56,070 nt of DNA from Candidatus Moraniibacteriota bacterium (GTDB taxonomy: Bacteria; Patescibacteriota; Minisyncoccia; Moranbacterales; UBA1568): the NCBI GenBank assembly GCA_023261645.1, contig JAHFOO010000008.1, forward strand, positions 1-56,070, written 5' to 3'. Position numbers and translations under genes: made by a program. Every line of letters starts with the position of its first letter. Position 1 is the stretch's first letter. Shown piece by piece: positions 37,930 through 54,805 of the stretch. A model generated the notes under the pieces. The model was not told the DNA's origin. It did not search any database and worked only from the letters and a program-made list of their open reading frames with translations.

Positions 37930-38006
37930 AGAAAAAATGAACCGACTGAGGTAATGAACCTCTTCGGACGCTTAATTTATTAATATTTATATTACAATTA
38001 CAGGGC

Positions 38007-39456: not shown

Positions 39457-39462
39457 AAAGAT

Positions 39463-40044
39463 ATGTTTTGTAAAAATTGTGGAAAAGAAGTCAGTCAAGA
39501 AGCAAATTTTTGTAAAAATTGCGGCGACTCAACAAAAGAATTAATTGTAGAGTCACTAAACAGTACAAACAAAAGTGTGGTTTCTGAGAAAAAACTTGTC
39601 CCAGAACTTACAGAGGATGGTATTTCTAAGTACAGAGGTATTCATGGTTGGCTTATAGTAGTAGTTTTGGGGCTGTTTATTACAACTGGTTATGTAGGTT
39701 TTCAATTTCTGGATATATTTTTTGGCAGCGTTCAATATGGTGAAAATACTGGACTATTTGTTTATGATTTTTTGAGCATGGGCTCAGTTACGGTTTTGTC
39801 TATATATGTTATTTACCTTTTTTTTACAAAGAAAAGAAAGTTTCCAAAATACTATATTTCTTTGCTGATTCTTCTTATGGTAGTTAATATAATTACGCTC
39901 ATAGTAGTATCATCCTACTCAGTAACCGGAAGTGATCTTGCGGAATACTCAAATAACGCCGGGAGAGCCACTGTTCAAGCGATAGTTTGGGGATTATACG
40001 CAACTAAGTCTAGGCGTGTCAAAGCGACATTCGTGGAAAATTAG
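39463..40044 (+). CDS. Zinc-ribbon plus DUF2569-like membrane protein
   Basis: MFCKNCG...ANFCKNCG; GIHGWL...W.LY..KSRRVKATF. Confidence 0.78.
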   Translation: MFCKNCGKEVSQEANFCKNCGDSTKELIVESLNSTNKSVVSEKKLVPELTEDGISKYRGIHGWLIVVVLGLFITTGYVGFQFLDIFFGSVQYGENTGLFVYDFLSMGSVTVLSIYVIYLFFTKKRKFPKYYISLLILLMVVNIITLIVVSSYSVTGSDLAEYSNNAGRATVQAIVWGLYATKSRRVKATFVEN

Positions 40045-40067
40045 GCAATTATATAACTAAATGATCT

Positions 40068-40604
40068 ATGGATTGTCCGAGTTGTAGAAAAAGTATTGGT
40101 GCAGATGCTGTTTTCTGTAAGTACTGCGGAGTGGAAGTAGCCCCAATGCGAGTGAAACTTCTGGCTGAAATGTATATCGAGCCAGAAACACAAGAACATC
40201 CATCTGCGTTGCCCGTTGCACAAAGTATAAAAAAAATTCCACAACCTTCAATATGGGAGTCTATTAAAGGCTTGTCTTCATTATGGGATGTAGTCAAAAG
40301 TTCATCTGGAGTTGTCAGAGTGATTTTGTTATTTATAGGTCTGAATGTAATTTTATGGGGAGCTCAAGAGCTTTACTATTGGGGTGATTCACAAAAGATG
40401 GGGGAATTAGATACTCAAATTACGAGTATGGATAGTCAAATAAAAAGTATAGAAAGCTTTCCAAATACCACAACTCAAAGCCAATACGAAAGTTTAATTA
40501 ATAAGAGAAACAAGGCTGCAGATGAGTATAACGCTCTAGTTAAATCGTCTGGTACTAGATGGTATTTAATACCGATCCCTCTAGGTGGCCATTCACTAAA
40601 ATAA
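40068..40604 (+). CDS. Zinc-ribbon, single-TM protein
   Basis: MDCPSC...AVFCKYCG; TM; short coiled coil. Confidence 0.72.
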   Translation: MDCPSCRKSIGADAVFCKYCGVEVAPMRVKLLAEMYIEPETQEHPSALPVAQSIKKIPQPSIWESIKGLSSLWDVVKSSSGVVRVILLFIGLNVILWGAQELYYWGDSQKMGELDTQITSMDSQIKSIESFPNTTTQSQYESLINKRNKAADEYNALVKSSGTRWYLIPIPLGGHSLK

Positions 40605-40621
40605 CTATTAACTTTAAAAAT

Positions 40622-41203
40622 ATGTTTTGTACAGATTGTGGGAAGTCACTAGAGAAAGACAGCGTTTTTTGTGAATTCTGTGGGGCTAAACAAGCAGAAG
40701 CAGGGCCGACAACAGAACCGGGGGCATCTATTTCGGATCAAGTAATGAGTTTAAAAGGCGAGAGTCCAATCAATGCTTCAAAAGAAATTTTAAATAAAGA
40801 ACTTAAACAGATGGCTGACCATCTTGAGTTTCTAGGGTATGGGATTGAAAAGTTAGAAACTAGCGGAGATGACAAAAGAGAGAATGTTTTTGCACAGCAT
40901 CCAAGTAACCTTGATTTTACATTACTGGAAGTATTCCCAGGCTTTATTATTCTCAAAGTGCTAATGGCGACAAAAAAGAAGCCATCTTCAGAGATCGACG
41001 CTTTTATTAATGATATGAATAAGAACTTTATAATTTCGAAAATCTATCGTGAAATAGAGAATGAAACTGTATACCTCAGAATCGAATCAATTTATATGGG
41101 TGTTTACGTTAAGGATCTGTTTGTAAAGTTTATGGACCTGAACATTAGGGAGCATAATCAATTACGATCATCAGATGATTTTACTAATTTGTTTGTAAAT
41201 TAA
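40622..41203 (+). CDS. Zinc-ribbon protein with possible YbjN-like C-terminal domain
   Basis: MFCTDCG...SVFCEFCG; C-terminal alpha/beta domain. Confidence 0.68.
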   Translation: MFCTDCGKSLEKDSVFCEFCGAKQAEAGPTTEPGASISDQVMSLKGESPINASKEILNKELKQMADHLEFLGYGIEKLETSGDDKRENVFAQHPSNLDFTLLEVFPGFIILKVLMATKKKPSSEIDAFINDMNKNFIISKIYREIENETVYLRIESIYMGVYVKDLFVKFMDLNIREHNQLRSSDDFTNLFVN

Positions 41204-41207
41204 ATTA

Positions 41208-41744
41208 ATGGAAAAATTTAAATCAATAGTTTCGGCATTCTTTGTTATTATCGGCATAGCTTTTGGTATCTTCATATTTGTTAAAAGTTCTGTGCTTACC
41301 ATATGGTCGTCACCATCTGTTCCCGAAACGTATGCAATTAATGGTGCTGATGGTAGATCGATTAAAATAATATTTTTGCCAGAAAATAAAACTATAATGT
41401 GGTATAAAGATCCCAATGTTGGTTCTGAAGAATATAACTTAGTCGAGATGAAGGGAACATATGGGACGCATTATTTCTGGGGACTATGGAAAATAGAAGG
41501 CCCCGGTATTGCTTTTGGGTATAGATTTTATCCTGATGGAACTGAACCAGTTGTAATGGAGACAAAAACAATTCAAAAATACATGAACGGAAAAGGCGAT
41601 CCCAACTTTTCTCCAGTTGGTAAAATTACAAATACCACTTGGCTATTTCGGAAAGATTCTGCCAAGTTTCAGGATATGTGGTTGCAAAAAGAAGAAAACA
41701 ACAATTTATTTATTTCACAGTTATTAAATAACTTGGAGAGGTAA
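41208..41744 (+). CDS. Hypothetical membrane-anchored beta-rich protein
   Basis: N-terminal TM; in operon. Confidence 0.65.
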   Translation: MEKFKSIVSAFFVIIGIAFGIFIFVKSSVLTIWSSPSVPETYAINGADGRSIKIIFLPENKTIMWYKDPNVGSEEYNLVEMKGTYGTHYFWGLWKIEGPGIAFGYRFYPDGTEPVVMETKTIQKYMNGKGDPNFSPVGKITNTTWLFRKDSAKFQDMWLQKEENNNLFISQLLNNLER

Positions 41745-41764
41745 TTAATTTTAATTATAGTCAT

Positions 41765-42076
41765 ATGAAAAAGATTTTAATTTTCCCGCTGCTTTTGTCG
41801 GCATTATTACTATCAGGCTGCAGCGATACAAATTCCTCGGCACTTACTAACACTGCCGTGCCTTCAACAACATCGTCTAAAGCAACCGTACCTGCCGTAG
41901 CTCCCTCTACAAAAACATCCGCTTCTGAAAATACAACAAATCCAAATGTCAAAAAAAGTACCTCTGGGATCTGTCATGCTAAAGGGTCTACCTATTACGG
42001 TAGAACGTTGAATTTTACTGCTTACGATACTATAGATGATTGTCTTAATAGCGGGGGAAGAATGCCAAAAAAGTAA
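41765..42076 (+). CDS. Lipoprotein with small Cys/His C-terminal domain
   Basis: Lipobox LLSGC; S/T linker; KKSTSGICH..GSTYY.RT....D.CL.SGGR.PK. Confidence 0.75.
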   Translation: MKKILIFPLLLSALLLSGCSDTNSSALTNTAVPSTTSSKATVPAVAPSTKTSASENTTNPNVKKSTSGICHAKGSTYYGRTLNFTAYDTIDDCLNSGGRMPKK

Positions 42077-42081
42077 TTTGA

Positions 42082-42729
42082 ATGAGTATGGAGTTCGGTA
42101 CTGAAAACATGGGCAGAAAGAAAGCAATAGTATTATTTGCAGCCCTTTTTGTTTTTGTAGTTGCTGTCGCAGTTTATGCCGGATCATTACTCAGGCACCA
42201 ACGAGATGATATTGGGGTAATAGCTTCTCCTTTGACTGATACTCCTGCCAAAGAGATAGGTATCTTGCCGGAGCAAGGGACTGTTAGCGTGGAATCGGCT
42301 GAGGCAAAATGCCACGTTGTTGATGGCCTCCCTGACCTATTATGCACACCTGGGGTAACCGATTCTCGGGTTACACAAGAAAATATTAAAGACACAATTT
42401 GTAAGTCTGGTTATACAAAGACAGTCCGTCCTCCAGTTACAGTGACTTCAAAAATCAAAGAGCAAACAATGAAAGACTATGGATTTACAGATAGCCCAAG
42501 TAACTATGAGTTAGACCATCTTATTTCCCTGGAGCTTGGCGGCTCCCCGGATGATGTAAAGAATTTATTTCCTGAGCCCTATAATATTGAATTGGGTGCC
42601 ACAAAGAAAGACACTGTGGAAAATTATCTTCACGCTCAAGTATGTAGCGGGCTACTCACGCTTAAGGAAGCTCAGAAGGCAATCTCGGAAAACTGGGTGC
42701 TAGTGTATCAGACAAATATTGTGAAATAG
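42082..42729 (+). CDS. Secreted HNH-like nuclease-family protein
   Basis: N-terminal TM; LPD...TPG, TIC..GYT..VRP, YELDHLISLELGGS....NL.PE, VCSG. Confidence 0.65.
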   Translation: MSMEFGTENMGRKKAIVLFAALFVFVVAVAVYAGSLLRHQRDDIGVIASPLTDTPAKEIGILPEQGTVSVESAEAKCHVVDGLPDLLCTPGVTDSRVTQENIKDTICKSGYTKTVRPPVTVTSKIKEQTMKDYGFTDSPSNYELDHLISLELGGSPDDVKNLFPEPYNIELGATKKDTVENYLHAQVCSGLLTLKEAQKAISENWVLVYQTNIVK

Positions 42730-42756
42730 TTTGATATAATGATCAACTGAATTTTT

Positions 42757-44766
42757 ATGGTAGATGGAATCTTTATTTTTCTGGTTAGTGCGGCGGTTGT
42801 TGCTTTGGTGACAATCGCTAATAGATTGTTTGCGAATGGCGGAGATTCTTTGCGAGATAAGAAAGAGGGCCATAATGAAAAGAAACTTGAAACAGTACAG
42901 CTTACCGTAGTTAAAAGTGAGGCTAGTTTAAAAAAAACTGCTAATACAGTAGAAGAAATACCTGGTAAAAAGAAACTTGAAGTAACGACAACTCTACAAA
43001 AGAGAGTATGGACAGTAATAAAAAGAATCAGTAGAAAATATAACCACCTACTTCTGTTTGAGCTCCTAGTGATTCTTACCTGCTTATTTGGCTACATATC
43101 TATCTACAAGCTAGGATCGCCAAATGCTGAATATAACTCTTTCTATAATTATTATTTATTACAATACTTTTTTCTCAAAAAAATACTTCTAACTATTGCT
43201 ATAGCGGTAGGGGTAGCACTTTCTTTAATAATCGTTTTGGCTCTATTGAAAAAGAAACGTTTTAAGAAGAAATACGCAGTCCATTCTTTTTCAGTAGTTG
43301 CGGTCATAATCCTGGCTTTCAATATATCCTTTTTAGCTATCTATGCTTTTTCTTTTGTTGAAACTAGATACTTGCAATATGAAATATCTTCAAACCAAGA
43401 GACGCATGGACTTATCTGGGGCAATGATAAGCTTGTGTCAAAATTAGAGAGCGAAGTAGCGTCACCGCGGATAGTGAAAGCAGAAGAGAACCCAAGCAAT
43501 CAAATAGTTCGGTATATTGTCTCAAATAGAAAGAATAGAGGAGACTACTATTTGCAGAAGATATTAAATGGTGTACTAAACAAATTTCCTACAAACCTCG
43601 GTATTCCTAGTGAGGCTCCTTTGTTCATGTATAGTGATAATTTGTATATAAGAAAACTTGAAAAAGATTCTTATGCAGCGATCAGTCCAATTTTAGGCAA
43701 GCTTTTAGTAAAAGGTGCTTTACCAGATAGGAATATTAAAGATGAGCCCTCCCTCCTTGTAATGGATCGAGAAGAATACAATACCTTCCGTATAGACCAA
43801 ATTAATGAGCATATAGCAAAGATGAAGGATGCCATAGCACGAATTACGAAGGTAGTGAACTCCTACTACTCGGCAGTTTCCTATGATAAAGGGAGGGTTA
43901 ATTATAATGTAGGCATGGCAAATTCGATGATAGCAGAAGGAAACTCAGCCTATTCAAGTTGTATCCGAGCACAAAGCTGTACCTATAACTACATCCCCGG
44001 AACTTGCACATACTATCCATACGTTTATTGTAGTCCTGGATACTCTTATCAAACTTGCCTGCCAAGATATACTCCCTCATACTGTTCGGGTCAAATGGAT
44101 TTTTACTACAACCTTGCTGACGGATATAATAGAAATGCGAATGAATGGAGAGATCAATTGGGTTACGATCAGTATTATCTTGGAGTATATGTTGATTTAA
44201 GAGATACAGTAGAGACATATAAAGCTATGGCTGAAGCGTCTAAAGAAGACGTACCTTATGAGTTAGGTTTGTTTCAGCCGGATCTTGGTATAAAGGTTGT
44301 TTTGGAATCAGATAATCCAGAAACCGTGGCGGATAATATAGGTATCTTAGTCCATGAGTATCTTCACTACACGAGCTATGTTCCCGATATGAGTTTACCG
44401 ACATTCTTTGAAGAGGGTCTGACAGAATATTTCTCAAGAGAGATTGTTGACAAAAATATGGGAGTAAAGACAAAGATCGGGTACCCACTGATAACAAAAG
44501 TAATCGAAAGGATGACCGAAAAGATTTCGGAACAAGAGTTCAGAGACATATACTTTTCTAAAAATAGTGCTCTCCTAACGAGTACCCTGGATCGAGCTTA
44601 CGGTAAAGATTTTTCAAAGAAATACGAACTCTATTTTGAATTCATTTCCTATTTGCCACCAAAGGATGCTCTAGAAATTACAAATAAGTTTTTGGATAAG
44701 ATAGGTGTTGAAAAAATAGTTGAAGAAGACTTGTATAGTAAAGCGAGTGAGTTTAATGCCAATTGA
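42757..44766 (+). CDS. Membrane-anchored zincin-like metalloprotease with Cys-rich insert
   Basis: Several N-terminal TM helices; HEYLH...EEGLTEY. Confidence 0.7.
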   Translation: MVDGIFIFLVSAAVVALVTIANRLFANGGDSLRDKKEGHNEKKLETVQLTVVKSEASLKKTANTVEEIPGKKKLEVTTTLQKRVWTVIKRISRKYNHLLLFELLVILTCLFGYISIYKLGSPNAEYNSFYNYYLLQYFFLKKILLTIAIAVGVALSLIIVLALLKKKRFKKKYAVHSFSVVAVIILAFNISFLAIYAFSFVETRYLQYEISSNQETHGLIWGNDKLVSKLESEVASPRIVKAEENPSNQIVRYIVSNRKNRGDYYLQKILNGVLNKFPTNLGIPSEAPLFMYSDNLYIRKLEKDSYAAISPILGKLLVKGALPDRNIKDEPSLLVMDREEYNTFRIDQINEHIAKMKDAIARITKVVNSYYSAVSYDKGRVNYNVGMANSMIAEGNSAYSSCIRAQSCTYNYIPGTCTYYPYVYCSPGYSYQTCLPRYTPSYCSGQMDFYYNLADGYNRNANEWRDQLGYDQYYLGVYVDLRDTVETYKAMAEASKEDVPYELGLFQPDLGIKVVLESDNPETVADNIGILVHEYLHYTSYVPDMSLPTFFEEGLTEYFSREIVDKNMGVKTKIGYPLITKVIERMTEKISEQEFRDIYFSKNSALLTSTLDRAYGKDFSKKYELYFEFISYLPPKDALEITNKFLDKIGVEKIVEEDLYSKASEFNAN

Positions 44767-44779
44767 TTTAAAAGAGAAA

Positions 44780-45265
44780 CATATGATAGAAGAAATGTCA
44801 CAAATTATTAAAGATGAAAAAAATGGTTTTTTAGAAAAGTATCTTAATCGGGATACGGCTTTTATAACTGTTATTATTATTCTCGCTGGATTCTTTTTAG
44901 TACCACAGATATGGAGTAAAAATCCGTATAAGGCAGGTACGCAGTATTTTGTTTACCTTTTCCCAGATATTAATTCATCACTAAACTACAGACTTCCCGC
45001 AGATATTCTAATAGAGGAAGACTGTACTGGAGGGGAATGCGAACACGATATTCAAATAGAGACTGTTTACCTTGAGAATGGAAGTAGTAAGTATTTTGGA
45101 TGTATCGTTCAGCTCAAATATGAAAATTTCTGTAAAGATCAGGATGGAAAGGAATGGATGATTGTTTTGAGTGATTGGGAAGAAGCGAAAACAATAAAAG
45201 AGATTAAAGATTCAAAGAAAAAGGTAGATGATATTGTAAATAGCGTGATGAGTGAGGATCATTAG
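44780..45265 (+). CDS. Hypothetical single-TM protein
   Basis: ORF with TM and four Cys; start uncertain (44720-44800). Confidence 0.55.
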   Translation, partial: HMIEEMSQIIKDEKNGFLEKYLNRDTAFITVIIILAGFFLVPQIWSKNPYKAGTQYFVYLFPDINSSLNYRLPADILIEEDCTGGECEHDIQIETVYLENGSSKYFGCIVQLKYENFCKDQDGKEWMIVLSDWEEAKTIKEIKDSKKKVDDIVNSVMSEDH

Positions 45266-45288
45266 TTGTTCACCCTACAGAAAATACT

Positions 45289-45522
45289 TTGTATGAACTA
45301 GTGGCAAAGAATGGAACTCAAGTAACATCACAAACGCTCAATGTTCAGTATCCTTTATCAGTGAAGAAAACAGTTGCTCAAAATCCTGTAAATGTGGTTA
45401 ATGAAGCTTCTGATACTTCACAAAATGAAAATAATTCTAGTGCAGTCGGACTGTTGGTGGCGATAGTGGGTGGGGGAACTGTGTGGGCGGTAAGAAAATA
45501 TTTAGGAAAAAGGGTGCTCTAA
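45289..45522 (+). pseudogene. Probable gene remnant with C-terminal TM anchor
   Basis: No ATG start; ends in a TM helix plus basic tail. Confidence 0.35.
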
Positions 45523-45568
45523 GAGAATAGATTGTTAGAAATTTAGTGAAAGAAAATTATTGTGACTC

Positions 45569-46930
45569 CTAATTCGATATATTTCCTGATGGAGCCTTCT
45601 TCCTACGGATGTATTTAAAAAACTTTCTTTGTTGTGAGGATATTCCTCGGCCTATGTTTTTCATAACTTCCCCAGCATTTTTTATATAGATGCCTCCTTT
45701 TCTTTTCTTAATTAATCCAATGGCGCTTGGTTGTTTACGTGGATTTTTGTAAGTTTGTCTGTCTAAAAACTTTTGAACTTTCTTGTGCGCCTTTCTGTAT
45801 GCATTCTGTAATGTTTTTCCACGTACTTGGACATTAGATCCATTAAATTCGAAGCCGAGATAGTCAATAAACTTTCGCCCCAATACTTCTCCGTTCCCCG
45901 TTTTAACTTCAACACATACCACAGAACCGTCGCATAGTCTTTTAAAAGTAGCGATAAATGCCTTAGCTGGATTTATCTTTAGTGCATGTAATTTTATCGA
46001 CTCGCACAACGAAGAAAAAACAGCCTCTTTTTCGGGAATGGCACAGACGATTGCAATATCGTCACTGTATCTTCTGTATAACGTGTGAGGAAACTTTTTT
46101 ACAAATTCATAATCAAATAGAGACATGTAAATATTTGCTAAAAGCCCACTCAGAGCACTTCCCTGGGGTATTCCTATAGGCGTTTTGTTTTCTTTAATAG
46201 TTCCATTCCGTCCCAACTCGTATATTGCCTTCACTAGTGGATACTTATTGTGCCTAACCTTTTTCGAAACTTCTAAAATAAACTTTGCATATGTACTAAA
46301 CTTTCTTCGGTGGTGACTATCGTTTAACACATACCTAAATGCTGTTAAGGATCTCAGCACTTTGTATTCATCTCCCGACAGTTTGTTGCCGAGAATCATG
46401 GAAATATTTTCTTTCAGTATCCTGTGGTTTAAAGTATCAAAAAACTTTGAAATATCTGCAATAATTACCGCGCATTCGCCGTTACTTTTGATGTGGTCAA
46501 ATATCTCATGCGCAAAAAAGATATTGTTTTTTCCTTGTAGATTGTCCTCTTCCTTTGTAGCTTTCCTGCTCCTGTATGCTATTGTGTTAGTCTCAATACC
46601 CTTTTCGCGCACAAAAACTTCATATTTTTTACCCCATTGATATGCATAGAAACTGTATATGTGTGCATCAAGATGAGAGGCGTACATGATGGGTCTCTCC
46701 TTTATAGTTCGTATAGGGTTCTTATCTTTATCTTTTCGATATCGGATATCTTTCTTAATGAATTTTACTAAAGGGAGAAATTGATGCGTGCTTATATTTT
46801 TCAATGTAGTTACAACTTGCTCAAAGTCTCGAACATTGTCTATGTCTAGAGTTCTATCAAAATGTCTATATGCACGTTTTCTCTGTTTTGGTTTTAGCGA
46901 CTCCTTCCATTGTGTGTACACCTCTTCCAT
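45569..46930 (-). CDS. drt2: Defense-associated reverse transcriptase, DRT2 / UG2 family
   Basis: KR.Y.HFD, H.FLP, RPI.YASHLD.HIY.FYA, KNNI.FA, DISKFFD.L.H.ILK, GIPQGS.LSGLLANIYM, YRRYSDD, YLGF.F.GSN...R: motif order recognised as DRT2 RT; standalone, with ~320-nt structured upstream region. Confidence 0.88.
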   Translation of the reverse strand: MEEVYTQWKESLKPKQRKRAYRHFDRTLDIDNVRDFEQVVTTLKNISTHQFLPLVKFIKKDIRYRKDKDKNPIRTIKERPIMYASHLDAHIYSFYAYQWGKKYEVFVREKGIETNTIAYRSRKATKEEDNLQGKNNIFFAHEIFDHIKSNGECAVIIADISKFFDTLNHRILKENISMILGNKLSGDEYKVLRSLTAFRYVLNDSHHRRKFSTYAKFILEVSKKVRHNKYPLVKAIYELGRNGTIKENKTPIGIPQGSALSGLLANIYMSLFDYEFVKKFPHTLYRRYSDDIAIVCAIPEKEAVFSSLCESIKLHALKINPAKAFIATFKRLCDGSVVCVEVKTGNGEVLGRKFIDYLGFEFNGSNVQVRGKTLQNAYRKAHKKVQKFLDRQTYKNPRKQPSAIGLIKKRKGGIYIKNAGEVMKNIGRGISSQQRKFFKYIRRKKAPSGNISN

Positions 46931-46944
46931 AAATTTATTTCGTA

Positions 46945-47250
46945 TATGTAAAAACCCTTGTCCTCTGGCGAGCTTATCAGCATGCTCTTGGACAAGGGTT
47001 CTGTGGGCAAGCCCAGGCTATATTCATTGACATGTGTCCAAAAGGAGACACAAGGCTGACGGAACTACATTGATATAATAGTAATGACTATGACTCAAGA
47101 ATGGCTGCACTCTATCGTCGCTGACATCATTATTATGTTGTTCATCACGACCGCGAGCCGAGGCTTGCATATCGTTGTAAACACATCGCCTAACACCCCT
47201 AGAAGCAAGACGGTAGTATAGCCAATTCCTTCTTGAACCGAACGTTAGTC
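46945..47250 (-). ncRNA. DRT2-associated ncRNA (template plus scaffold)
   Basis: Lies between a sigma70 promoter and the RT start. Hairpins 46953-46963/46990-47000, 47004-47015, 47033-47038/47047-47052; long-range pairing of 47084-47106 with 47220-47252. Confidence 0.8.
47070..47183 (+). other. Candidate 114-nt neo-type repeat unit (hidden gene formed by cDNA concatenation)
   Basis: TATAAT at 47074-47079 near the unit start, TTGCAT at 47165-47170 near the end, ACA at 47067-69 and 47181-83 (offset 114), one stop-free frame. Confidence 0.65.
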
Positions 47251-47255
47251 ATAAC

Positions 47256-47284
47256 ATCATATCACAATGGATCGGTTTCCGCAA
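47256..47284 (-). promoter_or_regulatory. sigma70 promoter of the ncRNA-RT unit
   Basis: TTGCGG (47284-47279), N17, TATGAT (47261-47256) with extended TG. Confidence 0.7.
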
Positions 47285-47337
47285 GAGCTGAAGATGCTTC
47301 ATCTCTCTCGTTTTAATTTTGATAACGTTCTCATCTA

Positions 47338-47604
47338 CTAATAAATACGGAAGGCCTTACTCTTCTTCTTCCACATGCATGCGCTTATAGCGTCTTCTGA
47401 TGTTTTAAATTTATTATACTCATCAAATGTATAATAATCCCCTTTATCATTGGACACGACATTCTGTTCCCTTGGTGGCTGATAGTGAACTTCGCTGACG
47501 CACCAACGAGTTTTAGAAATGTACCACCATCCACCCAAAATCGGTACTCCAACTAATAGAGCAATGCCAAGAACCTTAATAATCTTTTTGTCAGTGTTAT
47601 TCAT
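47338..47604 (-). CDS. Small single-TM protein
   Basis: N-terminal TM; two Cys. Confidence 0.6.
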   Translation of the reverse strand: MNNTDKKIIKVLGIALLVGVPILGGWWYISKTRWCVSEVHYQPPREQNVVSNDKGDYYTFDEYNKFKTSEDAISACMWKKKSKAFRIY

Positions 47605-47904
47605 AGTGTTTTATTGTCGTTATTGAACATTATTTGCTTCTGTCTCCTGCCCCGTCGACCCGTTAAATAGGGGATTAAAATTAATTTGATTTAAAAATCA
47701 GGAAAAAAAATTAACAAAACTATTATTTTAAGCCATTACTTCGTTTAAAAAGGTATTTTGTTTTTTTATTCTTTAAACAAAACCCAGCTAAAATATTTTG
47801 ATAAATTTGATTTTTTTAGAAAAAAATATTTTGTCTTTTTCTGTTCAGGTCGTCATACATTTTTTAACTTAAGGGACTCTCAATCTCAATCCTCCTACCC
47901 CTGG

Positions 47905-48168
47905 CTACCAGAGATTAAAAAATACATACAAAGAAAGTGCCGTGATTAACAATTCTGCAAATAGACCAATGACAATCCAAGATTTTGTTACTGGAGTACT
48001 ATGATTTATTCCATTTTCTCGAACATCTTTTCTTAATGCAGAACTAGCAGAAAAATCGACCATGAGCAGAGCAACTATTGTCCAGCCTAGCTGTGATGGC
48101 AATGCAGAATCTGCCATTGACAAAAATATGAGTGCAGCAATACCAATTAGGTTAGAAATTATCGACAT
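47905..48168 (-). CDS. Small 3-TM membrane protein
   Basis: Hydrophobic 87-aa ORF. Confidence 0.6.
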   Translation of the reverse strand: MSIISNLIGIAALIFLSMADSALPSQLGWTIVALLMVDFSASSALRKDVRENGINHSTPVTKSWIVIGLFAELLITALSLYVFFNLW

Positions 48169-48200
48169 AGCGTTTTAATTAAGAGTTTCCACACGCGCAC

Positions 48201-48722
48201 CTATAGCTCCTTTTTTCCTATGCACTGGTTATAGTCAAAGGTATCTATGCTTTTCTTATTGCTTCTGCATCGACTTACTCTCTCATCCGTTTTAGTGTTT
48301 TGGTAATCGACGCTTAAATCTTCGTTTGCACACCCATCCTCTCTAAATTGCTTTTCCGCTAACTCTTTCCCAATCTGAGAAACTATCATGCCCTCTATAG
48401 GCAGTCTTCCTTGTAAGCACTCTATCTTTTTTTGGTTTACTCTAGACTCATTCATTTTCTGATTTACTATAATAGCGTCCATTTTTTGTTTTTCTGATTT
48501 TTCTGCAAACAAAGCAAGTGTCCCAAATACTATAAAAATAAGTAGAGCAATCGGTAGCAAAGCAATTATAATTTTTTTAGATTTATTATAGGAACTAGTG
48601 AGCTTCTGAGGCGTTAGCTGTTTTTTGATATTTACCATCGTACCTTCCAACCATTCGCCACAAAACCGACACTTTTTTGCATCATCCTTTACTTCTTCTG
48701 AACAAAATGAACATTTTTTCAT
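48201..48722 (-). CDS. Zinc-ribbon, single-TM protein
   Basis: MKKCSFCSEEV..DAKKCRFCGEWL; TM. Confidence 0.75.
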   Translation of the reverse strand: MKKCSFCSEEVKDDAKKCRFCGEWLEGTMVNIKKQLTPQKLTSSYNKSKKIIIALLPIALLIFIVFGTLALFAEKSEKQKMDAIIVNQKMNESRVNQKKIECLQGRLPIEGMIVSQIGKELAEKQFREDGCANEDLSVDYQNTKTDERVSRCRSNKKSIDTFDYNQCIGKKEL

Positions 48723-48743
48723 AATAGTTATTTCTTTTAAACT

Positions 48744-49301
48744 TTACAGGGGCGGATATACAACCCAAATAACAACCATAATGACAATAAAGAAGATTAT
48801 CCAGCTCCATTTCATTTTCATCTTGGCAGTCAACGTGTATTTAACTGGGATGAGAATATTCCAACTAAAAAGAAATATTGTTATCCCTATTCTCCAATTG
48901 AAAAAGATATACACTAACCCGAATAACGCACATATCGATATCGCATTATTTCCATACTTATGGAAGTAATATTCGGGATAAAACATTCTGTTTTGTTCTC
49001 TAAATTTTATATATTCATCGGGGCTAACCGTGTCTTTATACTTTTTAAATGCTTTATGCCTCGCAATAAAAAGAGGTATATAAAAAATGATAACACCCGC
49101 AAATGCAAAAATTAAAAACCATAAGAAATCGAGCTGGACGAGAGAAATGACTCCTGAAAACAAAACGCCTATCCCTACTATGCTTATCCAATGCATCTTA
49201 GCCGGACTAAGAACTTCTCGAAGTATATCTTTTTGCTCTATAGTCATTTCATCTGCGTCTAAGCCAAAACCTTTATCAAACATCTCTTTGTCGTTATCCA
49301 T
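48744..49301 (-). CDS. Hypothetical multi-TM protein
   Basis: About five hydrophobic segments. Confidence 0.65.
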   Translation of the reverse strand: MDNDKEMFDKGFGLDADEMTIEQKDILREVLSPAKMHWISIVGIGVLFSGVISLVQLDFLWFLIFAFAGVIIFYIPLFIARHKAFKKYKDTVSPDEYIKFREQNRMFYPEYYFHKYGNNAISICALFGLVYIFFNWRIGITIFLFSWNILIPVKYTLTAKMKMKWSWIIFFIVIMVVIWVVYPPL

Positions 49302-49319
49302 AATCTTTTTAGACCTGAA

Positions 49320-49574
49320 TTAAAAATAGTTCTCATGTTTGTTTCTGTCATGAAACCACGCCCAAATAAATAGCCACGCAACGATATATGTTAATGAAGT
49401 TTTGACACTCCAGTATGAGTCTGTAAGCCAAGCCATTCCTTCCCCAGTTCTTCTAAGAAAAAAAGAAAGTCCCATACAAAAAACCAGAATGAGTCCTGGC
49501 GTCAATGCGGCAAAAAACAAAGATACTAATATTTCTAAACAATATCTCCAAAAATTCGATTTTTCACTTCCCAT
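49320..49574 (-). CDS. Small 2-TM protein
   Basis: First gene of the leftward cargo operon. Confidence 0.6.
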   Translation of the reverse strand: MGSEKSNFWRYCLEILVSLFFAALTPGLILVFCMGLSFFLRRTGEGMAWLTDSYWSVKTSLTYIVAWLFIWAWFHDRNKHENYF

Positions 49575-49604
49575 AACTTTAACTAAGGATTATTTTTTAG
49601 ATAA

Positions 49605-49748
49605 CAAAAAAGGACAGCCGAGTTGTTCACCCACAACAGACAGCCTCGAAAGGAAGTCCAATCATGGAACTCGACTGCCCCTTACTACCCACGATTGGAT
49701 AGAAAAAAAGACAGTTTCCTTTCGAGAAAATCTATTGTAGGTGAACGG
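49605..49748 (-). promoter_or_regulatory. Structured leader (long hairpin whose loop pairs with the 3' flank, then U-tract)
   Basis: gttcacctacaata/tgttgtgggtgaac, ctcgaaaggaa/ttcctttcgag, tccaatcgtgg/ccatgattgga; loop gggcagtcgagtt complements downstream aactcggctgtcc plus TTTTTT; TATAAT just upstream (~49765-49770). Confidence 0.6.
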
Positions 49749-49821
49749 ATAAATATTATTACATATTATAGAAAAACACAAACCCAGCTTGATTGTAGAG
49801 TCTGCTTAGAGTAGGGTAAGA

Positions 49822-50730
49822 GTGAGTATTTTTGGATTCAATCTTATGAGCAAAAAAAAGCGGAATAATTATCAAGAGCAAGTGGAGGATCTTATAAAAC
49901 AAGGTAAAGATTTTGAGTATATAGAGAAATTTACTCAAGAAAATTATCCTGAGGAATGGGAGAGGGAAAAAGTGTCTATTGAGACATTCAACAAAAGGAT
50001 ACTAGAAGAAAATGAAAGGAGTATGAGCGCACAAGCATACACTAAGATATCACGTCATTTGGCTGATGTTGTAGTTAGTGCAGATTTTATAGATGAGATA
50101 CAAAAATTAAGGAGAAAATACAAAATACCAGAGAATGGGTTCTCTGTTAATGACCCACATGAAATTGAAGAGCATACCAAAATGAGTCTATGGCCAATCG
50201 AATGGAAATATATAGATGAAGACGAAGACTTAGACTTATACTTTAAAATTGAGGATGAATTAATTCGCCTTGCTATTGCTTTTGGATTACCGCCTCAATG
50301 TAGAGTTTTATTTGACCATTTAGTTTACCGGGATAAGAATTCGCAACTAAACTCAGACGCATCTTTGTGTTATATCAGCGATAGGCTGGAAGAACGAAAA
50401 TATAAAGATGAAATGGTTAATGATTTCTATTACCCGATAGCTATCAGGGTTCATCCGGGGGCATCTCAAAATGATATAACGGATTTTATTAAAAAAAATT
50501 ACACAAGCATTATTAAGCCACTTCAGGAAAAATACGAGGATAAGATGTGCCCTGTAGGAAAAACTCGAAATCGAAAAATCGATATACGGCAGCGTAACGA
50601 TTTCATATACGAAAATAGGGAGAAAAGCGGGAAAGAAATAGCTTCATTGGTATTAAGAAAATTTGGAGTATCTATTGACCATGGGCACGTTCTTAAAATA
50701 ATTTCCTTAGAGAGAAAAAGAAGAAGTTAA
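49822..50730 (+). CDS. Hypothetical protein, possible C-terminal HTH (element regulator?)
   Basis: 302-aa ORF ending RNDFIYE....GKEIASLV.RKFG..I....VLKII; start probably ATG 49846. Confidence 0.65.
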   Translation: MSIFGFNLMSKKKRNNYQEQVEDLIKQGKDFEYIEKFTQENYPEEWEREKVSIETFNKRILEENERSMSAQAYTKISRHLADVVVSADFIDEIQKLRRKYKIPENGFSVNDPHEIEEHTKMSLWPIEWKYIDEDEDLDLYFKIEDELIRLAIAFGLPPQCRVLFDHLVYRDKNSQLNSDASLCYISDRLEERKYKDEMVNDFYYPIAIRVHPGASQNDITDFIKKNYTSIIKPLQEKYEDKMCPVGKTRNRKIDIRQRNDFIYENREKSGKEIASLVLRKFGVSIDHGHVLKIISLERKRRS

Positions 50731-50772
50731 GTGTGGCATAGTTAGTTCTTATCCAAAAACAACCCGATCGAT

Positions 50773-50802
50773 TAACCTAGCTTTAAATAGCTAGGTTTTT
50801 TT
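50773..50802 (+). terminator. Intrinsic terminator
   Basis: aacctagct/agctaggtt plus T-run. Confidence 0.7.
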
Positions 50803-50838
50803 ATTTCCATCTGTAATTTTAATCATTAAGTAAAAAAT

Positions 50839-51186
50839 ATGTTCAGCCAGGATTCGTTATCTAAGTTACTAACAAAAAAAATAACATCTATGGAAGGCAA
50901 GGGATTTGGTATAGGGAGGATTTTCAACCGCTTAAGAAAAATGAGGGTTTGCGAATGCTTAAGTGATTTAGCGATACTAAGACTAATTCTTTATGAATTG
51001 CAAGGCTTAGAGAGGCTTCCATCAAGAAGCAAGATTTTGCATCATTTTCGAACCAAAATACCGAAAGAAGATTGGAGAGGAGTTCTGAAGACAGAAATTT
51101 TGAGCGATCTTTGTAATCCTATGAATATATCAAATTTTAAGGCACTTTCTTTGTGTAAGAGGTCTGTTAAATTGAAAAATCGATAA
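50839..51186 (+). CDS. Hypothetical basic protein
   Basis: 115-aa ORF in the element core module. Confidence 0.5.
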   Translation: MFSQDSLSKLLTKKITSMEGKGFGIGRIFNRLRKMRVCECLSDLAILRLILYELQGLERLPSRSKILHHFRTKIPKEDWRGVLKTEILSDLCNPMNISNFKALSLCKRSVKLKNR

Positions 51187-51195
51187 GTTACCTCA

Positions 51196-51357
51196 ATGAC
51201 CAAAGAATACCAGGTAAAACTGATGTTTTCTGAAAAAGAAGAAGATGAAAATAAACTTCTTTTGGTCTTTGAATATATCCTTAATCTTCAAAATAAAGAT
51301 AAACAAGATGAATCAAAAATACACGCAGGAAATGTTGAGGGAAATAGAAATAAGTGA
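51196..51357 (+). CDS. Small 53-aa ORF
   Basis: Manual ORF MTKEYQVKLMFSEKEEDENKLLLVFEYILNLQ...RNK, overlapping the next start. Confidence 0.4.
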   Translation: MTKEYQVKLMFSEKEEDENKLLLVFEYILNLQNKDKQDESKIHAGNVEGNRNK

Positions 51358-51952
51358 GCTTTCCGATTTTTCTCATGAACTGGAAAAAGTATGGAGGAGA
51401 TCTCGTTTAAAATTCACGGATAAGGAGCTTGTCTCCCTATTTCCTGAAGCCAAACAAATTATCTCTCAAAAAATTGAAGAATGGAAAGAAGTTTTAAAAT
51501 TGAAAAGAGAAACAGTTAGGTGTTCATTGAAAGAAATCTATAAACTAAATGTTGATGATCTATCAAAATGGTTTGGAGAATATATGGTTGAGGTATTCCT
51601 TTTCAATGAGGTAAAGGGAATTTATAAGCATATTGGTAGATTACAAAGACAGTTGATGCAGATTAATGGTGAACAAGGGGTTCGAATAGAATTTTGGGAC
51701 AATCAATTAGAGAAGGCACGAGGAAAACCAATAGCGGATATTGCAGAGCAAAATCTCCTAGTAAGAAATATCGGAAATAGATTTTCAGCTAAATGTCCTT
51801 TTCATGAAGACAAAACACCAAGCTTTTATATTTATCCAGAAACAAATACATATCACTGCTTTGGATGTCAGGCTCATGGGGATGTAATTAATTTAACCAT
51901 GCATTTATACGGACTTTCTTTTAAGGAGGCGGTACAAATGCTTAATCAATAA
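51308..51952 (+). CDS. CHC2 zinc-finger protein (DnaG-type Zn-binding domain at C-terminus, no TOPRIM)
   Basis: CPFHEDKTPSF......YHCFGC..HGDVI.......SFKEAV. Confidence 0.88.
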   Translation: MNQKYTQEMLREIEISELSDFSHELEKVWRRSRLKFTDKELVSLFPEAKQIISQKIEEWKEVLKLKRETVRCSLKEIYKLNVDDLSKWFGEYMVEVFLFNEVKGIYKHIGRLQRQLMQINGEQGVRIEFWDNQLEKARGKPIADIAEQNLLVRNIGNRFSAKCPFHEDKTPSFYIYPETNTYHCFGCQAHGDVINLTMHLYGLSFKEAVQMLNQ

Positions 51953-51958
51953 TATCGT

Positions 51959-53005
51959 ATGGATGCCTTTGAAAAGTTGAAAGAAGAAGCTAAAAATGAA
52001 GTCATTTCTGAGGGAAAAGGAATGAATTTTCTCACTATTAAGGATGTGTGGAATATGGTATTCCCTCCAAATAGATGGGTTGTGGATCAAATTGTCCCTT
52101 CTGAGGGTATTACAATCATCTCTGGTGCACCTGCGAGCTATAAGACGTGGCTTATCCTTCAGATGGCTATTAACATATCAAGAGGAGAATCGTTCTTAGG
52201 AAAGTTCAATACTGAGAAGGGGAATGTATTGATGATTGATGAGGAGAATCACCTTCAATTAGTTAAAGATAGACTTATTCTTTTAGGAGGAGATGATTTG
52301 CTCTCTATCTGTTTTCTTTCTCAACAAGACTTCTTAATCACAGACGAGAGAATGGTGAAGAAAGTGCTATCTATGTGTGAAGAGAAAAGTATATCAGTTA
52401 TATTTATCGATTCACTTGTGAGAATAAATCGTGCTGATGAGAATGATGCCTCTAGAATGTCTGAAGTCTTCCGAGCTATAAGAAGCCTTTGTAAGGCAGG
52501 GAAGACAGTTATTCTTACCCATCATGAGAAGAAAGAAGGGACATTTAAGCTCTCTCCTCAATCAAGAATGCGAGGATCATCAGATATTTCTGCTTCAGTT
52601 GATGCTCATCTAGCGATATCTCGAGATAGAGATAATAAGACATTTCTGATTCTCGAGCAGGCTAAGAATAGACGAGAAATGGAAATTGCTCCGTTTGGAG
52701 TCGAGGTTAAGAAAGAGAATAATCGTGTTTGGTTTGAATATAAAGGAGATTATGATATGGGGAAAAATAAGAAAGGTGAAGCCAGAGAGTCTATCCTCCA
52801 GATGCTCGAAGGCTATCCTGATGGTATGACGAAAGGAGATATTTCAATACAGATTTCTGAAACCTGTAAGATTGGAGCAAAGAGTTGTAGAGAAGCGTTG
52901 GATGATTTAATTAAAGAGGAGCTTGTGAAAGAAAAACCTGGTGTTGGTAATACGAAACACTGTGTATTAGCGAAATATTCTGTTGATGAACAAGGGGAGA
53001 TTTGA
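51959..53005 (+). CDS. RepA-like / AAA_25 (RecA-fold) ATPase-helicase
   Basis: W.VD.IVP..GITIISGAPASYKT (Walker A), IDEEN, FIDSL, THHEKK, RGSSDI. Confidence 0.85.
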   Translation: MDAFEKLKEEAKNEVISEGKGMNFLTIKDVWNMVFPPNRWVVDQIVPSEGITIISGAPASYKTWLILQMAINISRGESFLGKFNTEKGNVLMIDEENHLQLVKDRLILLGGDDLLSICFLSQQDFLITDERMVKKVLSMCEEKSISVIFIDSLVRINRADENDASRMSEVFRAIRSLCKAGKTVILTHHEKKEGTFKLSPQSRMRGSSDISASVDAHLAISRDRDNKTFLILEQAKNRREMEIAPFGVEVKKENNRVWFEYKGDYDMGKNKKGEARESILQMLEGYPDGMTKGDISIQISETCKIGAKSCREALDDLIKEELVKEKPGVGNTKHCVLAKYSVDEQGEI

Positions 53006-53072
53006 AATGGCGAATTGGCATGTATATATAGTAGTGCCATTTTGCCGATTCAAAGTGTGGTATAATGTAATT

Positions 53073-53190
53073 ACTTATCCAACAATGTTACCTGCGAGTT
53101 TTATTTTGCCAAACTAAAAGGGTAACCATGCTGACAAACCTCGCGGAATGTTGGATAAGTCATGGTTACCCCTTTAGTTTTTATTTTTAT
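53073..53190 (+). promoter_or_regulatory. Structured leader of the recombinase (interleaved inverted repeats plus U-tract)
   Basis: acttatccaaca (53073) / tgttggataagt (53149-53160); aaactaaaagggtaaccatg (53111-53130) / catggttacccctttagttt (53161-53180); TGnTATAAT at 53058-53066. Confidence 0.62.
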
Positions 53191-53194
53191 TATT

Positions 53195-54805
53195 ATGAAT
53201 AAGGCAGCAATATATCTTCGTGTTTCTAGCGAAGAACAAGTAAGAGGTTTTGGACTAGAAGTACAAGAAGAAAAACTGAGAGACTACTGTAAGTTGTATG
53301 ATTTTGAAATTGAGGAAAAACACGTATTTCGTGAGGAGGGTGTTAGCGGCGCAGAGAGAAATAGACCAGAGTTAAACCGAATGCTTGTTTGTGCTGAGAA
53401 GAAAGAATTTTCTGTTGTTCTCGTATATAAAATAGATCGTCTATCAAGACTATTACTACACCTTCTTGAGGTTACAAATAAATTCGAACAACTTGGTGTT
53501 GGCTTTCGTTCTGTTACTGAGCCTATCGATACAACTAACTCTTTAGGAAGATGTATTTTTCAGATTCTCGGATCATTTGCAGAGTTTGAAAGAGGGGTCA
53601 TCAGAGAGAGGACTTATGGTGGTCAAATCAAGAATAAACAGCAAGGAAATTGGGTGAGCGGTATTACTTCTTATGGTCGTGATTATGATAAAGTCACAAA
53701 AAAACTTGCAGTGAATGAAGAAGAAGATAAATGGGTTCAAAAAATGTTTGAATGGATGACGAAAGATAGAATGTCTTTACATGGTATTGCAGATAGACTT
53801 AATGCTTTAGGTGTCCCAACAAAGTATGACAATCTTGGAAAAAAGAAAAAGGTGAACGGAACTTGTTATTGGAGACCGAGAGCCGTAGGAAGAATTATTG
53901 CTAACAGTACCTATACTGGCACCTTCACTTATAATAAATATGAGAATTCAACAGTTGGCAGTAAGTTACGACCAGAGGATGAATGGATTCCTATTGAAAC
54001 ACCTAAAACAATCAGTAAGGAAATATTTGATCTAGCTCAAGAACAACTTAAATCAAATAGGCGCTTTTCATTAAAGAATGCAAGACATATTTATCTTTTT
54101 TCTGGAATACTTAATTGTGGGGACTGCGGGGGCAGATATGCAGCGAGTTATGATACGGGTAGGAAGACGATGTCAGAAATACAGAAGAAAAGATATTACT
54201 GTAATAATACTCGAAAATATGTTCGTCAGCTGACGTGTAAAGTTCCTAGTATTACTGAACACAGACTAGCAAACCCTATTTGGGAGAAACTTCTTGGTTT
54301 GCTGGAGGATCCAAATGTTGCACTTGAACAATTAGAAAAATTGAACGAGAAAACTGGAGAGCTTAATGATGCTCACACAAGACTAGCCGAAGCAGAGACT
54401 CTTTTGGAGAAAAATACTGTAAAACAGAAGAAGCTTTTAGATGCTTTCTTAGAAGTGGAGGGCGGACTTGAACAGAAGGACTTTCTCTCTAGAAAGCATG
54501 ATTTAGAGGAAGATAAGAATAAGCTTTTAGATGAGAAGCGACGTTATGAGTCAATGCTTATATCTGATGGCGAGAAGAATACTCGTGTAAATGCGATTCA
54601 GATTATGTATCGAAAAATCAAAGAAAACCTTACTAATATTTCTTATGAACAAAAGAGAGAGGTGCTGAAGATGTTGGTAAATAAGGTTATTGTTACTGGT
54701 TCTGAGATAGATATTCACTGCAATATACCCTATCAATTTGCTTTTGCGGAACAGAGCACTCGTTTCCCGTATCGATCCCGGAAGGATTCGGCAGAAGGGA
54801 AGTGA
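53195..54805 (+). CDS. Large serine recombinase (integrase); integrated-state form reads across the att site
   Basis: AAIYLRVSS.EQ, EEGVSG...RPEL, VYKIDRLSR, AEFER..I.ER, Zn ribbon LNCGDCG...YYC...C, coiled coil; last 14 codons derive from host DNA. Confidence 0.95.
   Translation: MNKAAIYLRVSSEEQVRGFGLEVQEEKLRDYCKLYDFEIEEKHVFREEGVSGAERNRPELNRMLVCAEKKEFSVVLVYKIDRLSRLLLHLLEVTNKFEQLGVGFRSVTEPIDTTNSLGRCIFQILGSFAEFERGVIRERTYGGQIKNKQQGNWVSGITSYGRDYDKVTKKLAVNEEEDKWVQKMFEWMTKDRMSLHGIADRLNALGVPTKYDNLGKKKKVNGTCYWRPRAVGRIIANSTYTGTFTYNKYENSTVGSKLRPEDEWIPIETPKTISKEIFDLAQEQLKSNRRFSLKNARHIYLFSGILNCGDCGGRYAASYDTGRKTMSEIQKKRYYCNNTRKYVRQLTCKVPSITEHRLANPIWEKLLGLLEDPNVALEQLEKLNEKTGELNDAHTRLAEAETLLEKNTVKQKKLLDAFLEVEGGLEQKDFLSRKHDLEEDKNKLLDEKRRYESMLISDGEKNTRVNAIQIMYRKIKENLTNISYEQKREVLKMLVNKVIVTGSEIDIHCNIPYQFAFAEQSTRFPYRSRKDSAEGK

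Follow-up and report, generated by a model that had tools for sequence, protein, structure and literature searches.

In Klebsiella pneumoniae, the reverse transcriptase (RT) of the DRT2 system makes a gene, neo, by rolling-circle reverse transcription (Tang et al. 2024, bioRxiv 10.1101/2024.05.08.593200; Wilkinson et al. 2024, PMC12039810). The motifs ACA-1 and ACA-2 are strongly conserved among Klebsiella-related homologues, and annotation of Neo is described as harder in divergent clades (Tang et al. 2024, bioRxiv 10.1101/2024.05.08.593200). GATAT and its offset, at which the primer-binding site lies, were described by Wilkinson et al. (2024, PMC12039810), and the papers on the Klebsiella system list units of 111, 117, 120 and 129 nucleotides (nt). 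Here we analyze a DRT2 locus of Candidatus Moraniibacteriota bacterium, found in positions 1 to 56,070 of contig JAHFOO010000008.1 (assembly GCA_023261645.1); this whole 56,070-nt stretch is referred to as the window. We propose that a 114-nt stretch of the DRT2 noncoding RNA (ncRNA) is very probably the template from which a neo gene with a 114-nt period is made, and that the DRT2 lineage concerned is a divergent one with links to Patescibacteria. The mechanism itself is already known; what appears new, and is well supported at the level of sequence comparison, is a neo in this lineage that differs in jump motif, in the position of the junction, in register and in start context.

The published Klebsiella mechanism agrees with the locus point by point. 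As in Klebsiella DRT2, a single Drt2-family RT gene follows a structured ncRNA of about 300 nt, in which the template is flanked by a 5' handle and a 3' scaffold. The genomic -10 lies ahead of the -35, and the two come to stand 17 nt apart once the ends of the unit are joined. The unit is a multiple of three nucleotides long (3n) and holds one stop-free hydrophobic frame antisense to the ncRNA. A 3-nt homology is followed, after two bases, by GATAT at the primer-site offset, and in the window this GATAT overlaps the -10. The features on which the argument depends are these:

45569..46930, minus strand: DRT2 (UG2) RT gene, 453 amino acids (aa), catalytic YSDD at residues 288-291
46941..47248, minus strand: DRT2 ncRNA (approximate ends) with 5' handle, template and 3' scaffold, kept in 7 distinct loci at a mean column identity of 73%
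47069..47182, plus strand: template and predicted neo repeat unit, 114 nt or 38 codons, the same circle as 47067-47180; open-frame translation IDIIVMTMTQEWLHSIVADIIIMLFITTASRGLHIVVN
47181..47183, minus strand: donor end of the template, RNA UGU with core G47182-U47181, predicted complementary DNA (cDNA) end ACA; anchor GUUU invariant in 7/7 loci
47067..47069, minus strand: acceptor of the predicted template jump, RNA UGU within AAUGU, invariant in 7/7 loci
47165..47170, plus strand: -35 of the predicted junction promoter, TTGCAT, read as codons TTG CAT
47071..47079, plus strand: extended -10 of the predicted junction promoter, TGATATAAT, which includes GATAT (47072-47076)
47084..47092, plus strand: two ATGs of the open frame (47084 and 47090), which follow the -10 by 4 and 10 nt and have no Shine-Dalgarno (SD) motif upstream
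47219..47221, plus strand: TAG closing the frame in the un-concatenated genome, where it ends a 45-aa open reading frame (ORF), 47084-47221

The RT matches the PADLOC profile PDLC03757 Drt2 at E=6e-103 (343.5 bits), against 82.3 bits for the best non-Drt2 profile in that collection, RT_UG17. RVT_1 is the sole Pfam domain of the protein, and PDB chains of Klebsiella-type Drt2 (e.g. 9c0i_A) match residues 14-386 at E=8.9e-42. Residues Y288, S289, D290 and D291 are invariant in the RT alignment and line up with the YCDD region in the PDB chain. With Drt2 as the best profile, an intact YxDD, a structured ncRNA upstream on the same strand and no other domain or partner gene, the gene adjoining the ncRNA is, by homology, a DRT2 RT.

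The first-pass annotation of the window had claimed that a promoter is split across the template, and reading of the sequence together with a script bore this out: the extended -10 and TTGCAT lie where it had placed them. No -35 precedes the -10 at 17 nt in the genome, where 47051-47056 read CAAGGC and the promoter scan lists no plus-strand site. ACA occurs at 47067-47069 and again at 47181-47183, 114 nt apart, and joining at this distance yields TTGCAT, a 17-nt spacer (47171-47182 followed by 47069-47073) and TATAAT. It had further been predicted that one plus-strand frame alone would cross the junction without a stop and that this frame would close in the genome at the TAG of 47219-47221. 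Both statements hold, the other two plus-strand frames of the concatemer meeting 6 and 2 stops per unit.

Much of the weight of the argument lies with homologues. A metagenome-contig scan with a three-RT alignment returned 62 loci, nine of which form a clade with the window; together they amount to seven distinct sequences, namely the window, L033 (=L034), L035 (=L040), L036, L042, L037 (=L038) and L039. Their RTs are 48-60% identical to that of the window. We delimited the units of this clade by two invariant RNA-sense anchors, GUUU at the donor and AAUGU after the complement of the -10. The distance from GU to GU is 114 nt in the window and 111, 111, 105, 105, 111 and 111 nt in the others, so that the conserved 3n length expected by the first-pass annotation is found in every one of them, as is a joined spacer of 17 nt. 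The same plus-strand frame is stop-free in 7/7 loci, the remaining plus-strand frames having 1-7 stops per unit; when the mononucleotides of each unit are shuffled, the given frame stays open in just 8-13% of cases. On the opposite strand of the concatemer there is one further stop-free frame in the window, open in just 4 of the 7 distinct loci. The units are 56-79% identical to one another, save L036 and L042 at 98%. TATAAT is kept in all seven and its TGn extension in five; the TTG of the -35 is likewise kept in all seven, with differences confined to the last three bases (CAT, CCA, TAT, CAA, CGT).

The pattern of insertions and deletions in the ncRNA alignment points the same way. Inside the template there are 4 distinct gap runs, of 3, 6, 3 and 3 nt, all of them 3n. 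In the handle, linker and 3' scaffold there are 13 distinct runs, of 1, 1, 2, 1, 2, 4, 5, 1, 1, 5, 2, 1 and 2 nt, and none is a multiple of three. Such a restriction of 3n gaps to the template is what a reading frame limited to this span would produce.

A sister clade delimits the jump more sharply. At the sites aligned with donor and acceptor, its loci carry direct repeats: GUUAUCA (7 nt) in L041, GUU (3 nt) in L043, GUUAUAAGC (9 nt) in L044 (=L045=L091), GUUAUCA (7 nt) in L002, GUUGA (5 nt) in L001 and CGUUAA (6 nt) in L047. The corresponding units, in the order L041, L043, L044, L002, L001 and L047, measure 147, 147, 147, 147, 171 and 123 nt, each with a 17-nt spacer and one open plus-strand frame. 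Six of the seven distinct loci of this clade thus fit, while L046 did not match the anchor. Since the repeats vary between loci yet match within a locus, they behave as expected of a template-jump homology, and they fix the position of the jump. The 3n length, the open frame and the 17-nt joined spacer are therefore kept in 7/7 loci of the window's clade and in 6/7 of the sister clade. Together with the DRT2 identity of the RT and the 3n-only indels of the template, this supports the earlier claim of a divergent neo with a hydrophobic unit.

In the window's clade the homology is GU in L033 and L039, GUU in L035, L036, L042 and L037, and UGU in the window alone. By comparison of the two clades, it is a jump homology that has shrunk to GU, GUU or UGU around a conserved core GU. 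The earlier claim that the homology would be UGU, and not RNA-sense ACA, thus stands in part: the junction was rightly placed and ACA is unused, but UGU, being present in the window only, is not a family motif.

The signature extends to the wider DRT2 family. We scanned for a composite of a TTG-type -35, a 17-nt spacer, a -10 with at least 5/6 matches, a 3n unit length within 90-190 nt, an open frame and a homology of at least 3 nt. Among 65 distinct DRT2 upstream regions, 40 were positive in the cDNA sense and 5 in the RNA sense, compared with 38 of 1300 shuffles; the other 25 of the 65 regions gave no composite signature in the cDNA sense. The scan misses L039, which falls under the 3-nt homology cut, and scored L033 for a different 126-nt candidate. 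A Klebsiella-like class (e.g. L004, L008-L010, L055, L060, L062, L066, L068, L077 and L084) shows TTGACA, a junction 2-3 nt on with RNA-sense ACA, GATAT two bases later, TATAAT, an SD motif and ATG, an order that agrees with the description of Wilkinson et al. (2024, PMC12039810). The two groups read their hexamers in different registers. In the window's clade TTG forms a codon and the -10 is read xxT ATA ATx; in the ACA class the reading is xTT GAC Axx and TAT AAT, which gives L-D and Y-N in the peptides. Only these two registers are possible, because the third puts TGA or TAA in frame.

A further DRT2 clade (L074, L075, L076, L080, L082 and L089) has RNA-sense (C)GUU homology 5 nt after TTGACA, units of 129-132 nt, an SD motif with ATG, and the Y-N register; ACA is therefore not the sole motif outside the window's lineage either. 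In five loci of the clade sister to the 14-row clade that includes the window (L048, L049, L053, L061 and L067), a loose scan brought up just 2-nt homologies and candidate units of 162 nt. One Patescibacteria metagenome-assembled genome (MAG) has its DRT2 RT split into ORFs of 286 and 217 aa (L005, 1432-3035). The region upstream gave 0 candidates in the composite scan, though TTGACA and a TAAGAT block resembling a -10 can be read there; the locus may be in decay or may have been misassembled.

In the RT tree, the window falls in a starred clade of 7 within a starred clade of 14, apart from the ACA class, whose starred clade numbers 15. The tree, with 55 rows and an arbitrary root, was built with FastTree only, a quick method. 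Rows were left out as duplicates (L034, L038, L040, L045, L064, L078, L090 and L091), for a split RT (L005), for falling under the 300-aa cut (L063), or as weak or partial matches (L015-L022, L051, L057, L071, L082-L085, L088, L089 and L092-L094).

The ncRNA is a structured RNA in its own right. The consensus fold of the seven distinct loci, window included, comprises 76 pairs, 22 of them with compensatory changes, and its parts in the window are as follows:

47190..47248, minus strand: 5' handle, made up of an outer helix (47248-47238/47202-47190) and an inner hairpin (47234-47228/47213-47207)
47030..47056, minus strand: 3' scaffold hairpin directly after the acceptor (columns 234-260), three pairs of which have compensatory changes in 3 sequences each
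46952..47001, minus strand: long 3' scaffold hairpin (columns 289-339), followed by the conserved tail UUUUACA(U/C)
47256..47284, minus strand: putative promoter of the ncRNA-RT transcript; TTGCGG (47284-47279), 17 nt, TATGAT (47261-47256), preceded by TG (47264-47263)

The pairs of the 5' handle correspond to alignment columns 37-47/85-97 and 51-57/73-79 and include changes on both sides, columns 38/96 for example being CG in 4 sequences and UA in 3. A different hairpin, UUGCUU/AGGCGA, had been suggested to abut the stop point of copying; we abandon it, as it overlaps the covarying outer helix of the handle. Hairpins also form inside the template of the consensus fold, one of them pairing the complement of the -10 with an upstream template segment. 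A covariance model of the 3' scaffold (R1), built on the seven clade sequences, scores the window at 105.9 bits (46944-47068). Run over 64 sources, it found its own 7 training loci, gave a marginal match to the sister-clade locus L002 (E=0.097) and matched no ACA-class locus; the Klebsiella ncRNA is divided into handle, template, pseudoknot, tower and buttress. An Rfam scan of 44000-50000 gave no meaningful match, the two chance matches having E > 0.6. TTGCGG/TATGAT is likely the ncRNA-RT promoter, judging from a TATAnT block that six homologues keep in the alignment columns of its -10; the promoter scan missed it because its -35 matches 3/6 positions.

Two complementarities within the ncRNA may be mentioned here. 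The ACAU of its 3' tail (46946-46949) is complementary to the AUGU of the acceptor (47067-47070) in 7/7 clade members. One could entertain, purely as an idea, that the 3' end folds back through ACAU/AUGU and would prime just before GATAT, much as the Klebsiella ncRNA self-primes. In addition, UUGGCU in the loop of the 5' handle (47221-47226) and AGCC after the acceptor (47052-47055) are both invariant in the clade. A 4-bp pseudoknot between them could bring donor and acceptor together; covariation is impossible here because neither block varies.

The frame kept open across these loci has a hydrophobic bias. The predicted 38-residue unit of the window has a grand average of hydropathicity (GRAVY) of 1.23 and consists of 53% I/L/V/F/M, and GRAVY across the clade is 0.96-1.25. 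T occupies the second position of 0.53 of the codons in the window's open frame, compared with 0.26 and 0.13 in its other plus-strand frames; for the clade the corresponding values are 0.43-0.53 and 0.13-0.35. AlphaFold2 modelled one 38-aa unit (7-row alignment) as a single helix with a predicted local distance difference test score (pLDDT) of 82 and a predicted template modelling score (pTM) of 0.42, a result of little weight, since helices are the usual outcome for short hydrophobic peptides and no repeat fold can emerge from one unit. In four clade homologues an ATG lies 7 nt after the -10. With ATG so near the -10 and no SD motif, the mRNA may be leaderless or SD-independent, which would suit a host whose genes seldom have an SD motif.

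By analogy with Klebsiella, the locus would work as follows. The RT encoded just downstream would bind the ncRNA (minus strand, about 47248-46941), and priming would take place at GATAT (47072-47076). Copying of the 114-nt template would run from its acceptor end, near 47069, as far as its donor end at 47182/47183, where the enzyme would halt about 7 nt short of the 5' handle helix. The 3' end of the cDNA, ACA with core AC, would then re-pair with the acceptor UGU (47069-47067), and renewed copying would build head-to-tail repeats of 114 nt. Upon second-strand synthesis, each junction would become a promoter composed of TTGCAT, 17 nt and TGATATAAT. Transcription from the junctions would produce mRNAs carrying the stop-less 38-codon repeats, to be translated into a strongly hydrophobic, probably helical polypeptide. 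If phage infection is the trigger and the product is toxic, as with Klebsiella Neo, this polypeptide would arrest the infected cell (abortive infection).

Several points weigh against this proposal. The -35 is weak, TTGCAT matching TTGACA at 3/6 positions. The jump homology is short: the window has 3 nt, and two homologues (L033 and L039) have 2 nt. RNA-sense ACA, called critical in the Klebsiella class, does not occur at the junction; copies lie at 47178-47176, 47141-47139, 47138-47136 and 47035-47033, and no pair of them yields a 17-nt spacer. In the genome, where the unit is present once, the extended -10 might be active even with no -35 ahead of it, in which case gating may leak. The promoter-like blocks double as parts of the RNA, one in the template hairpin and another as GATAT at the primer-site offset, which possibly explains part of their conservation. 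A run search turned up 4 groundwater-metagenome DNA runs from 2 studies and no RNA run; the assembled contigs (Logan) of these 4 (1, 2, 2 and 1 pieces; depth about 3-9) had no joints, loose ends or differences, in data without power for cDNA. Chance, too, produces the signature at an appreciable rate: the composite scan was positive in 89 of 2000 dinucleotide shuffles (4.5%) of the 400-nt region, and in 61 of the 2000 the promoter score was at least as good. This rate, p of about 0.03-0.045, makes the single sequence only suggestive when taken alone and places the weight on the homologues.

Other points of this kind concern the coding capacity of the repeats and could be taken to mean that tandem cDNA is made from the template but works as DNA or RNA, as a sponge or signal, in the manner of DRT10 and DRT9, with the open frame as a by-product. 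Variable sites at the three codon positions number 24, 18 and 22 of 37. In the absence of a third-position excess, these counts do not support selection on the amino-acid sequence, just on frame, length and composition. The ATGs of the neo frame lack an SD motif, and the ATG at 47090, aligned with ATG in 5/7 clade loci, is replaced by ATA in L035 and L039, each of which has another in-frame ATG. Moreover, other class 2 DRTs produce non-coding repeats. Yet a by-product frame would hardly be expected to confine 3n indels to the template (4/4, against 0/13 outside), to stay open in 7/7 and 6/7 distinct loci of two clades, or to have a hydrophobic codon bias of its own that the other frames lack; and SD motifs are rare in this host anyway. 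We regard a non-translated cDNA as improbable.

We give equally little credit to a junction or period other than 114 nt, be it 116 nt by way of AUGU (47186-47183/47070-47067), 117 nt by way of GUU, 126 nt by way of the ACA at 47193, or one altered by untemplated bases. The AUGU homology has 4 nt and is longer than UGU, the 126-nt unit is likewise 3n and open, and the Klebsiella enzyme adds one junction base, as stated by Tang et al. (2024). However, the 114-nt period alone keeps both the 17-nt spacer and the frame, and homologues conserve the GU core and the 3n period but neither donor U47183 nor AUGU. The 126-nt unit, offered by the first-pass annotation as a weaker alternative, is not supported: its second ACA (47193-47195) sits inside the covarying 5' handle helix, and it would need TAAACA as a -35. 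The periods of 116, 117 and 126 nt were rejected on these grounds of spacer, frame and lack of conservation.

An ordinary small gene would be another explanation, namely the hydrophobic 45-aa ORF 47084-47221, which could be expressed from the chromosomal extended -10 as a type I toxin-like product with the ncRNA as antisense partner. A TGnTATAAT element can function without a -35, and a host gene has the same element upstream. Nevertheless, the tail of the ORF beyond the donor ranges from 9 to 27 codons across homologues and is conserved just where the 5' handle of the RNA is, and a chromosomal gene leaves unexplained the 17-nt joined spacer, the direct repeats of the sister clade and the limitation of 3n indels to the span from donor to acceptor; it is thus highly improbable. 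No more credible is pure chance, that is, an AT-rich structured RNA with accidental promoter-like hexamers and an open frame: the shuffles above, and a single open plus-strand frame in about 25% of shuffled units, speak for it, but a signature kept across loci at 56-79% unit identity and across two clades, and found in 40/65 regions in the cDNA sense against 5/65 in the RNA-sense control, already disfavours it.

If the 114-nt unit is a neo template, it departs from the Klebsiella type in several respects. The jump homology is GU or UGU in the RNA instead of ACA. The junction follows the -35 by 10-12 nt and precedes the -10 by 4-5 nt, as opposed to 2-3 nt after TTGACA in ACA-class loci, and the promoter hexamers occupy the other stop-free register. 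In the window no SD motif precedes an ATG that follows the -10 by 4-10 nt, whereas Klebsiella has a ribosome-binding site (RBS) and a start 13 nt downstream. The unit of 114 nt, the 840-kb Patescibacteria-type host genome and the placement of the RT in a separate starred clade also set it apart. The window's clade may be one of the divergent DRT2 clades mentioned by Tang et al., since its ncRNA can be detected and a pipeline relying on ACA would fail on it; unlike those clades, as described there, the neo of the window can be delimited through the long direct repeats of the sister clade. A literature search, which did not extend to the supplements of the DRT2 papers (Table S1 and fig. S6 of Tang et al. 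may cover the clade), retrieved no paper combining DRT2 and Patescibacteria and none on the diversity of DRT2 jump motifs.

More distant parallels are offered by DRT10 (UG17) and DRT9, which are also defence RTs making ncRNA-templated repetitive DNA. In contrast to what is proposed for the window, they make short repeats or homopolymers, rely on separate effector proteins and assemble no ORF. Circular intermediates of insertion sequences (IS) and transposons, to which both DRT2 papers make comparison, resemble the locus in that -35 and -10 reach a working distance only after the ends join. They differ from it in that here there is no transposase and no DNA circle, and the joint would be made by reverse transcription.

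The host is a groundwater bacterium of Patescibacteria type, with a genome of 840 kb in 12 contigs (95.8% complete). The DRT2 locus lies in a stretch of about 17 kb (window 38000-55000) with a guanine-cytosine (GC) content of 0.33-0.40, against 0.44-0.46 on both flanks, that also contains these genes:

51245-51952: DnaG-type zinc-finger protein
51959-53005: AAA_25/DnaB-like (helicase-like) protein
53162-54805: large serine recombinase

No tRNA genes were found in 36000-56070. The low-GC stretch is probably an integrated mobile element carrying the DRT2 defence system. Long ORFs of the window end in 17 TAA, 15 TGA and 13 TAG codons, and the use of all three stops indicates a standard genetic code. 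An SD-like motif precedes just 5 of the 45 long ORFs (at least 150 aa), so that translation start in this host is mostly SD-independent. Upstream of the host gene at 42757 we noted TGATATAAT, identical to the extended -10 of the neo junction.

Distribution of DRT2 in the phylum is sporadic, since a search of 40 relatives with the window's RT as query returned no DRT2 and only weak RT matches, and 400 further genomes yielded one RT match at E<=1e-20. This match, L095 (G312:C3:58384-62568), has an RT at E=1e-47 with 34% identity to that of the window and no neo signature by the composite scan. The closest RTs in named genomes, at 41-46% identity, come from Patescibacteria MAGs.

Taken further, and more tentatively, these comparisons raise the possibility that a separate Patescibacteria/metagenome lineage of DRT2 builds neo by other rules: a jump with a GU core, placed next to the -10 and the primer site, hexamers in the one other register free of stops, a leaderless or SD-independent mRNA starting at or a few bases before the AUG, and a membrane-type hydrophobic polymer as product. 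With homologies as short as 2 nt, RNA structure and protein, more than base pairing, would determine where copying stops and restarts. If so, the ACA rule would be the habit of a clade and not a requirement of the mechanism, and pipelines keyed to ACA would miss whole branches of genes made by reverse transcription. The ACA motif, the junction position, the register and the RBS would be replaceable; a 3n unit, a spacer of 17 nt and an open frame of hydrophobic character would not. These features would supply concrete rules for finding hidden neo genes where ACA-based search has reportedly struggled, and natural variants with 2-9 nt of jump homology would be useful for probing how the RT chooses its jump site. 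Reverse-transcription-made genes would thereby be extended to a divergent branch of DRT2 and to an ultra-small (840 kb) groundwater bacterium.

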